This document shows positions 52,061 to 52,128 of a DNA stretch of 64,000 nt, in pieces (positions within the stretch are counted from its first letter, which is position 1; every line of letters starts with the position of its first letter). The stretch lies in assembly GCF_002854065.1 (NCBI RefSeq), contig NZ_CP024147.1; one strand, 5' to 3'. Both the position numbers and the translations under genes were made by a program. The notes beneath the pieces are model-generated. The model ran no database searches and was not told the origin of the DNA. It saw only the letters and a program-made list of their open reading frames with translations. This stretch comes from Escherichia coli. GTDB taxonomy: Bacteria; Pseudomonadota; Gammaproteobacteria; Enterobacterales; Enterobacteriaceae.

Positions 52061-52128
52061 GATTACTCCGCTACTCCGGTCATTCACACTCAACTAACGT
52101 TAAGCCAGTCCATCGCAGAGACTGGCTT

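Follow-up and report, generated by a model that had tools for sequence, protein, structure and literature searches.

Expression of the transposases of IS10 and IS50 is said, in work of Davis, Simons and Kleckner in 1985 and of Schulz and Reznikoff in 1991, to be guarded from outside transcription by fold-back inhibition. An inverted repeat lies with its 3′ arm over the ribosome-binding site and the start codon, transcription from the element's own promoter begins within the 5′ arm or beyond it, and only transcripts from outside form the stem and are poorly translated. The sequestration of the translation initiation signals of both elements in mRNA secondary structure has been described (bioRxiv 10.1101/2025.01.24.634351). 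An SD-sequestering stem-loop is likewise known from the 5′ UTR of tnpA in IS200 (PMC4513863). Here we describe a hairpin at the start of yjdP, located in a window (the whole stretch of Escherichia coli DNA that was analysed) of 64,000 nucleotides. It shares with IS10 and IS50 the arrangement of the inverted repeat and, by prediction, a transcription start inside the 5′ arm, with the stem and the poor translation restricted to outside transcripts. It differs from them in that yjdP is a chromosomal gene for a secreted stress-induced protein and not for a transposase, and in that the element, its start within the arm being predicted, is kept together with its promoter across a bacterial family. 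As in IS200 tnpA, and in leader hairpins that occlude a ribosome-binding site generally, a local hairpin buries the translation initiation region. However, the IS200 stem belongs to the 5′ UTR of tnpA itself and a separate terminator stops impinging transcription, whereas at yjdP one hairpin would insulate, and yjdP's own mRNA is predicted to lack it. The yjdP element works as a ribosome-binding-site-masking hairpin, a known kind, and probably in the manner of fold-back inhibition; its occurrence throughout a family, at a stress gene of the chromosome, is undescribed but does not amount to a new principle. The gene itself is uncharacterised and has almost no literature: the papers that mention yjdP do not deal with its regulation, and two rice papers that contain the string are probably unrelated.

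The hairpin and the genes on either side of it occupy the following positions of the window.

51428-52060, plus strand: GNAT-family N-acetyltransferase gene, co-directional with yjdP and the candidate source of read-through (as annotated by PGAP in strain XJ34, where the region is identical; ORF list)
52101-52110, plus strand: 5′ arm of the hairpin, TAAGCCAGTC (sequence, inverted-repeat scan and RNA fold)
52104-52110, 52111-52119 and 52120-52126, plus strand: stem core with its loop as first reported, gccagtc, catcgcaga (loop) and gactggc
52111-52119, plus strand: loop of the hairpin, CATCGCAGA, holding the first bases of an SD-like AGAGA (52117-52121)
52120-52129, plus strand: 3′ arm of the hairpin, GACTGGCTTA, over the spacer between SD and AUG and over the A with which the start codon begins
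52129-52458, plus strand: yjdP coding sequence, for a secreted DDRRRQL-repeat protein of 109 aa (Pfam PF28054)

Positions 52095-52131 read TAACGT-TAAGCCAGTC-CATCGCAGA-GACTGGCTTA-TG. An earlier note on this DNA had placed a hairpin just 5′ of the yjdP ATG, and its presence was confirmed: gccagtc and gactggc are followed by TT and then by the ATG at 52129-52131. The coordinates proposed for it, 52103-52127, extend one base beyond the 7-bp stem on each side; A52103 and T52127 also pair, and the true repeat is longer, a perfect inverted repeat of 10 bp with a 9-nt loop (52101-52110 against 52120-52129) whose final base is the A of the yjdP ATG. One extra pair, C52111-G52118, was added by RNAfold. 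The same note had the stem lying over the ribosome-binding site, and this was borne out, since the structure takes in G52118 and G52120 from the weak SD-like AGAGA, everything between the SD and the AUG, and the A of the AUG. The start codon assumed there, the ATG at 52129, also stood: PGAP annotates the same start in identical genomes, and 13 homologues with a signal peptide align from Met1. Among complete homologues the length of YjdP varies between 95 and 123 aa through gain or loss of DDRRRQ(Y/F/L) repeat units, and the E. albertii protein (P0004) has two additional units.

The 40-nt segment 52095-52134 folded with -15.7 kcal/mol as compared with -5.1 ± 2.1 kcal/mol for 200 dinucleotide shuffles (z = -5.08), and none of the 200 was as good. 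The same yjdP hairpin was obtained when 110 nt of context were folded. Nine hairpins in the 64-kb window have a perfect stem of 10 bp or more around a loop of 3-12 nt, and most of them are terminator-like; the mean over 20 shuffled windows was 0.2. A lone perfect 10-bp hairpin is by itself only weak evidence, and we accepted the one at yjdP as real because it is conserved across genera. No Rfam covariance model matched a region overlapping 52095-52135, even at E <= 10. A dispersed repeat such as REP was ruled out, as exactly one copy per genome was found in 35 genomes.

To define the conservation we scanned one genome per species with a YjdP alignment, which gave 80 loci in Escherichia, Citrobacter, Enterobacter, Klebsiella, Raoultella, Kosakonia, Cedecea, Leclercia, Lelliottia, Kluyvera, Phytobacter, Pluralibacter, Trabulsiella and other genera. 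The comparison of upstream regions comprised 83 sequences, 79 of them unique for the analysis of spacing, and pairing was scored in 71 unique leaders (alignment A4). Hairpins at the same position 5′ of yjdP were present in about 60 species of Enterobacteriaceae, with compensatory changes and with some stems of alternative sequence. The hairpin starts right after the -10 hexamer and ends at the ATG; its typical form is AAAGCCAG...CUGGCUUU, and the GCCAG and CTGGC cores are 13-16 nt apart across the loci. When the ten proposed pairs were scored in the 71 leaders, 80.6% of the cells held standard pairs, against 18-48% when the 3′ partners were slid by 1-3 columns. The covariation score was 0.297, compared with at most 0.141 for the slid partners and 0.255 ± 0.012 for shuffles, and none of 500 shuffles reached the observed score, although the shuffles ignore kinship and the structure was drawn from the same sequences. 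Cells changed on both sides numbered 44 where 28 ± 7 were expected, and seven of the ten pairs had changed on both sides, the clearest covariation being that of pair 9-37 (24 A-U, 18 G-C and 12 G-U). The median folding energy of the leaders was -12.6 kcal/mol; 44 of the 71 folded with z < -2 and 36 with z < -3. Between -12 and +3, at least 6 of the 15 bases paired with bases 5′ of the predicted transcription start in 55 of the 71 leaders, and many genera have the entire AUG paired to the CGU of the -10 hexamer.

Stems of other sequence occupied the same site in several lineages. Those of Pseudocitrobacter are TCTCAC/GTGAGA and TCACAC/GTGTGA, and Kosakonia pseudosacchari and a relative have (A/G)GCCTCG/TGAGGCT, which is AGCCTCG/TGAGGCT in K. 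pseudosacchari. In the Citrobacter freundii group the SD is buried by a variant, longer stem that includes AGUUUC/GAGGCU (-14.4 kcal/mol, z = -3.1). The UUUGAUC/GAUCAGG stem of isolate L016 (-7.0 kcal/mol, z = 0.05) is no better than its own shuffles and stands as a sequence observation only. For the full heterogeneous alignment of 71 sequences RNAalifold returned no consensus structure. Taken together, the comparative data show, on grounds of conservation and covariation, that a stem at the yjdP start is under selection.

The genes upstream of this conserved site vary. In the window yjdP is preceded by the GNAT gene and a gene for a hybrid histidine kinase, and in K-12 by rpiB and als instead. 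In EHEC the OI167 island is inserted between yjcS and yjdP (PMC10128022), and the upstream cluster of the window is a variant of this island. The OI167-like part lies at 48955-52060 and comprises the hybrid kinase and ABC sugar transporter genes together with the intact GNAT gene, which is annotated as a truncated pseudogene in O145 strains (L005, 1458-1661) and is absent in O157. E. coli thus has three layouts, namely rpiB-yjdP (K-12), kinase-yjdP (O157) and kinase-GNAT-yjdP (this window, O145:H28 and others), and the spacer between the upstream gene and yjdP is exactly 68 nt in all three. The TGA stop of the GNAT gene (52058-52060) sits within an RcsB-like box, and the terminator scan found no terminator-like site on the plus strand between 51200 and 52129. 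The yjdP promoter module behaves as a fixed junction for the fusion of different upstream gene cassettes. The exact hairpin allele of the window was found in 35 of 5,426 complete E. coli genomes, once in each and invariant among the 35. In K-12 a comparable stem has been lost (-2.0 kcal/mol, z = +1.1), and O157 has only a weak, different stem (-7.4 kcal/mol). As a separate observation, RpiB, the LmvK-like hybrid kinase and the GNAT acetyltransferase, which are mutually unrelated, all stop at one TGA inside the RcsB-like block (window 52052-52074; loci L002, L003 and L007-L086), and the three genes have the common final codons Arg-(Asn/Ile/Val)-stop.

The 68-nt spacer contains the following elements, some of them predicted.

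52057-52074, plus strand: conserved block 1, TTGAGATTACTCCGCTAC (consensus TTGAGATTCCTCCGCTAC), seen in the upstream sequences of 83 loci, with a column conservation of 80-99%
52058-52071, plus strand: RcsB-box-like element TGAGATTACTCCGC, at -49 to -36 relative to the predicted start, its position constant in 73 of 79 unique sequences
52072-52077, plus strand: putative weak -35 region TACTCC, adjoining the box and separated from the -10 by 17 bp, placed from the geometry of box and -10 and a poor match to TTGACA
52095-52100, plus strand: predicted -10 hexamer TAACGT, with TAnnnT invariant in 83 of 83 sequences
52107, plus strand: predicted transcription start, an A preceded by C, 7 nt past the -10 and inside the 5′ arm, placed by analogy with rprA

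The order of the module is thus an RcsB-box-like block that includes the upstream stop codon, a variable stretch of 23 nt, the TAnnnT -10 and the hairpin that ends at the AUG. Block 1, which includes TGAGATTCCTCCGC across species, is nearly invariant in Enterobacteriaceae regardless of the upstream gene. Sequences 5′ of it show no relation from one locus to the next (RpiB, LmvK-like kinase, GNAT or no gene), and a conserved yjdP promoter must therefore be within the module. The only invariant -10-like hexamer of the module has 52100 as its last position, and the 5′ arm begins at the next base. Alternative -10 hexamers (TTGATT and GATTAA), and motifs for sigma-E, sigma-32, sigma-54, Cpx and PhoB, were dropped by eye for poor fit or lack of conservation. 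In 77 of the 83 sequences the -10 follows the GA of the box at 34 nt; the other 6, from Kosakonia, Kluyvera and an Enterobacter isolate, have 35 nt, and the sequence in between is variable. Counted from the start of the box, TAnnnT is reached after 37 nt in 73 of the 79 unique sequences and after 38 nt in the others, and from the -10 to the ATG there are 34-38 nt across the loci.

This geometry is that of rprA, the paradigm of RcsB-activated promoters and the one on which the RcsB-DNA structures were determined. The rprA box, TGAGACGAATCTGA, begins 37 nt before the -10 (TACTAT), the same box-start to -10-start distance as in yjdP; the box adjoins the -35 at both promoters, and the annotated rprA RNA begins 7 nt after the -10. 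Around the start so predicted for yjdP, CAG at -1/+1/+2 is kept in most loci. No yjdP entry and no matching coordinates were found in the supplements of Ettwiller 2016, Yan 2018 and Kim 2012 when these were searched for a yjdP transcription start. The structurally defined consensus of the RcsB box is TN(G/A)GAN4TC(T/C)NA (Huesa et al., PMC7913699). As in rprA and other RcsB promoters, yjdP has a TGAGA left half-site, a 4-nt spacer and a TCC right half; its box differs in ending with C instead of A, and the conserved block runs 3 nt further (TAC). The element TGAGATTACTCCGC agrees with the consensus at seven of eight specified positions, the exception being this final base, which is C in all 73 sequences of standard spacing; the strict consensus misses the known osmC/bdm site, so that the comparison is weak evidence either way.

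In K-12, inhibition of LolCDE raised yjdP RNA 9.5- and 10.6-fold, together with osmB, bdm, the wca genes, ivy, rcsA and other Rcs targets, and yjdP is in this sense co-induced with the Rcs regulon. The response to LolCDE inhibitors also draws in the Cpx and RpoS regulons. Since yjdP was induced and rpiB is absent from that table of genes induced more than about 5-fold, a stress-responsive promoter belonging to yjdP is indicated. The yjdP promoter is likely RcsB-dependent. A further likeness of block 1 was seen to the 3′ end of 16S rRNA, which reads AUUCCUCCACUAG from 3′ to 5′: positions 52061-52074, read 5′ to 3′ (AUUCCUCCGCUAC in most species), are nearly identical to it. This match is probably a coincidence, as a mirror image implies no base pairing.

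The position of the predicted start inside the 5′ arm suggests a model in which only RNA reading through from upstream would carry both arms and have a masked ribosome-binding site, and in which mRNA initiated at the yjdP promoter would be open. We consider the prospects of this model evenly balanced. The promoter would be activated by RcsB under envelope stress and would start at A52107 within the 5′ arm. An mRNA from about 52107 would keep just AGUC of that arm, so that the stem could not form and the ribosome-binding site would be open. RNA reading through from the GNAT gene and lmvK (from rpiB in other genomes) would contain both arms and be poorly translated, perhaps also weakly terminated, and YjdP would be made only when its own promoter fired. 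Read-through is plausible: the upstream gene stops only within the box, and there is no terminator-like site in between. In the fold of RNA with both arms the SD-to-AUG region is buried. In the thermodynamic model, opening of -14 to +4 cost 15.9 kcal/mol in read-through RNA, with 70 or with 200 nt upstream alike, and 5.5 kcal/mol in RNA starting at A52107. With the upstream part shuffled the cost was 8.1 ± 2.0 kcal/mol, and 1 of 300 shuffles reached the observed value. For the 71 leaders the median difference in opening cost was 5.7 kcal/mol, and it exceeded 2 kcal/mol in 53 of them. The suggestion of the earlier note that the hairpin occludes yjdP initiation would thus hold for RNA with both arms, but probably not for yjdP's own mRNA, which is predicted to start inside the 5′ arm. 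Its other suggestion, that the hairpin terminates read-through from upstream, was not upheld, given a 9-nt loop, three T in the eight bases after the stem and the absence of a call in the terminator scan. A hairpin that acts on read-through RNA would merge these two ideas, which were not combined there, and weak termination at the hairpin may serve the same insulating purpose.

Some observations speak against insulation. Enterobacter L033 and L085, in which the nearest upstream gene is divergent, keep a perfect stem, and the stem is lost in K-12 and weak in O157 although co-directional genes abut yjdP in both. No clear association was found between hairpin strength and the orientation of the upstream gene, in a comparison confounded by phylogeny. 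On the wider reading, a family-wide chromosomal insulator would have the RcsB-type promoter of an envelope-stress gene inside the 5′ arm of the masking stem and the CGT of its -10 pairing with the AUG, only promoter-initiated mRNA would be translatable, and the same 68-nt module would be a portable junction that supplies the TGA stop of three upstream genes unrelated to each other. We put this reading forward tentatively, and hold it to be a little short of an even prospect.

The main rival to insulation from read-through has the hairpin attenuate, in cis, the translation of the yjdP mRNA itself, which corresponds to the second suggestion of the earlier note. Transcription would then start 5′ of 52101, the leader would contain both arms, and yjdP would be translated only once the stem had melted or been opened, for instance by temperature, by an sRNA or a protein, or by a passing ribosome. 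A stable stem over the SD and the AUG, conserved with covariation, and a weak SD (GAGA) in the alleles that bear the hairpin are all in keeping with such a leader. We nevertheless think it rather unlikely, as the sole conserved -10-like element ends one base before the 5′ arm with an rprA-like spacing to the activator box, the lack of conservation 5′ of the module makes a conserved promoter further upstream unlikely, and the region has no Rfam match. An intrinsic terminator, or a protective 3′-end stem-loop for the upstream GNAT, lmvK or rpiB gene, would agree with the GC-rich core stem GCCAGTC/GACTGGC, 40 nt past the upstream stop codon, with the lack of any other terminator between that gene and yjdP and with the UUUAUG that follows the stem in most genera. 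Rho-independent terminators likewise have a GC-rich stem behind a gene and some U residues next to it, but at yjdP the loop is too long, the U-tract too short and the position locked to the downstream start codon. The terminator scan made no call. Such a terminator has a loop of 3-8 nt, as compared with 9 nt here and the 13-16 nt between the conserved cores elsewhere, and at least five U in the eight bases right after the stem, whereas the tail TTATGAAA has three T and that of most genera four. The position is fixed relative to the yjdP ATG and not to the upstream stop, and the hairpin is present also where no co-directional gene lies upstream. Termination or 3′-end protection as the main function appears distinctly improbable to us.

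The repeat could also act as DNA, as a palindromic operator for a dimeric repressor overlapping the yjdP start. It spans about -6 to +23 of the predicted transcription start, a typical position for a repressor, and its GCCAG and CTGGC cores are highly conserved. However, the spacing of the cores varies, stems of unrelated sequence occupy the same site in several genera, and G-U pairs, which are mismatches in DNA, are tolerated in 12 to 31 sequences at several pairs. The variable core spacing and the common G-U pairs argue for RNA pairing and against a protein-binding palindrome, and we assign the operator a very small probability. A chance inverted repeat without function receives next to no credence: the one perfect 10-bp hairpin expected about 0.2 times per shuffled 64-kb window, and a K-12 that does without the hairpin, would be compatible with it, but the comparative data, with the same position in about 60 species and compensatory changes, already contradict it.

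With the predicted start and the conserved hairpin, and with a promoter that is likely RcsB-dependent, yjdP gains a testable model. Insulation by the hairpin would uncouple yjdP translation from the transcription of variable upstream genes, whether als/rpiB or the mannose island OI167 of EHEC with lmvK. If the start is confirmed, yjdP would be a clear chromosomal case of translational insulation from read-through, which has mostly been described for insertion sequences, and the swapping of upstream cassettes, with a stop codon inside the promoter and YjdP output unchanged, would be explained. If insulation holds family-wide, fold-back inhibition would be a conserved design in a core stress regulon. 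As K-12 is without the hairpin, expression data for its yjdP may not hold for O145:H28 and other strains that have it.

Other structured elements were seen in the window. A G/C-rich palindromic element (cccctcacccc...ggggagagggttagggtgagggg) occupies 52481-52531, in the spacer of the convergent genes yjdP and phnP, where Rfam gave only sub-threshold noise; the yjdP-phnP spacer of K-12 has been listed with a 'G-quadruplex-hairpin' (HPGQ) repeat (PMC5100583). A second perfect 10-bp inverted repeat, TATCAGCCAC...GTGGCTGATA with an 11-nt loop, is located at 52617-52647 in the coding region of phnP, on the opposite strand. The longest perfect hairpins of the window are those at 12179-12209 (13 bp), 39858-39887 (12 bp) and 8922-8948 (11 bp), and the first two have an A-run before and a T-run after the stem, like bidirectional terminators.
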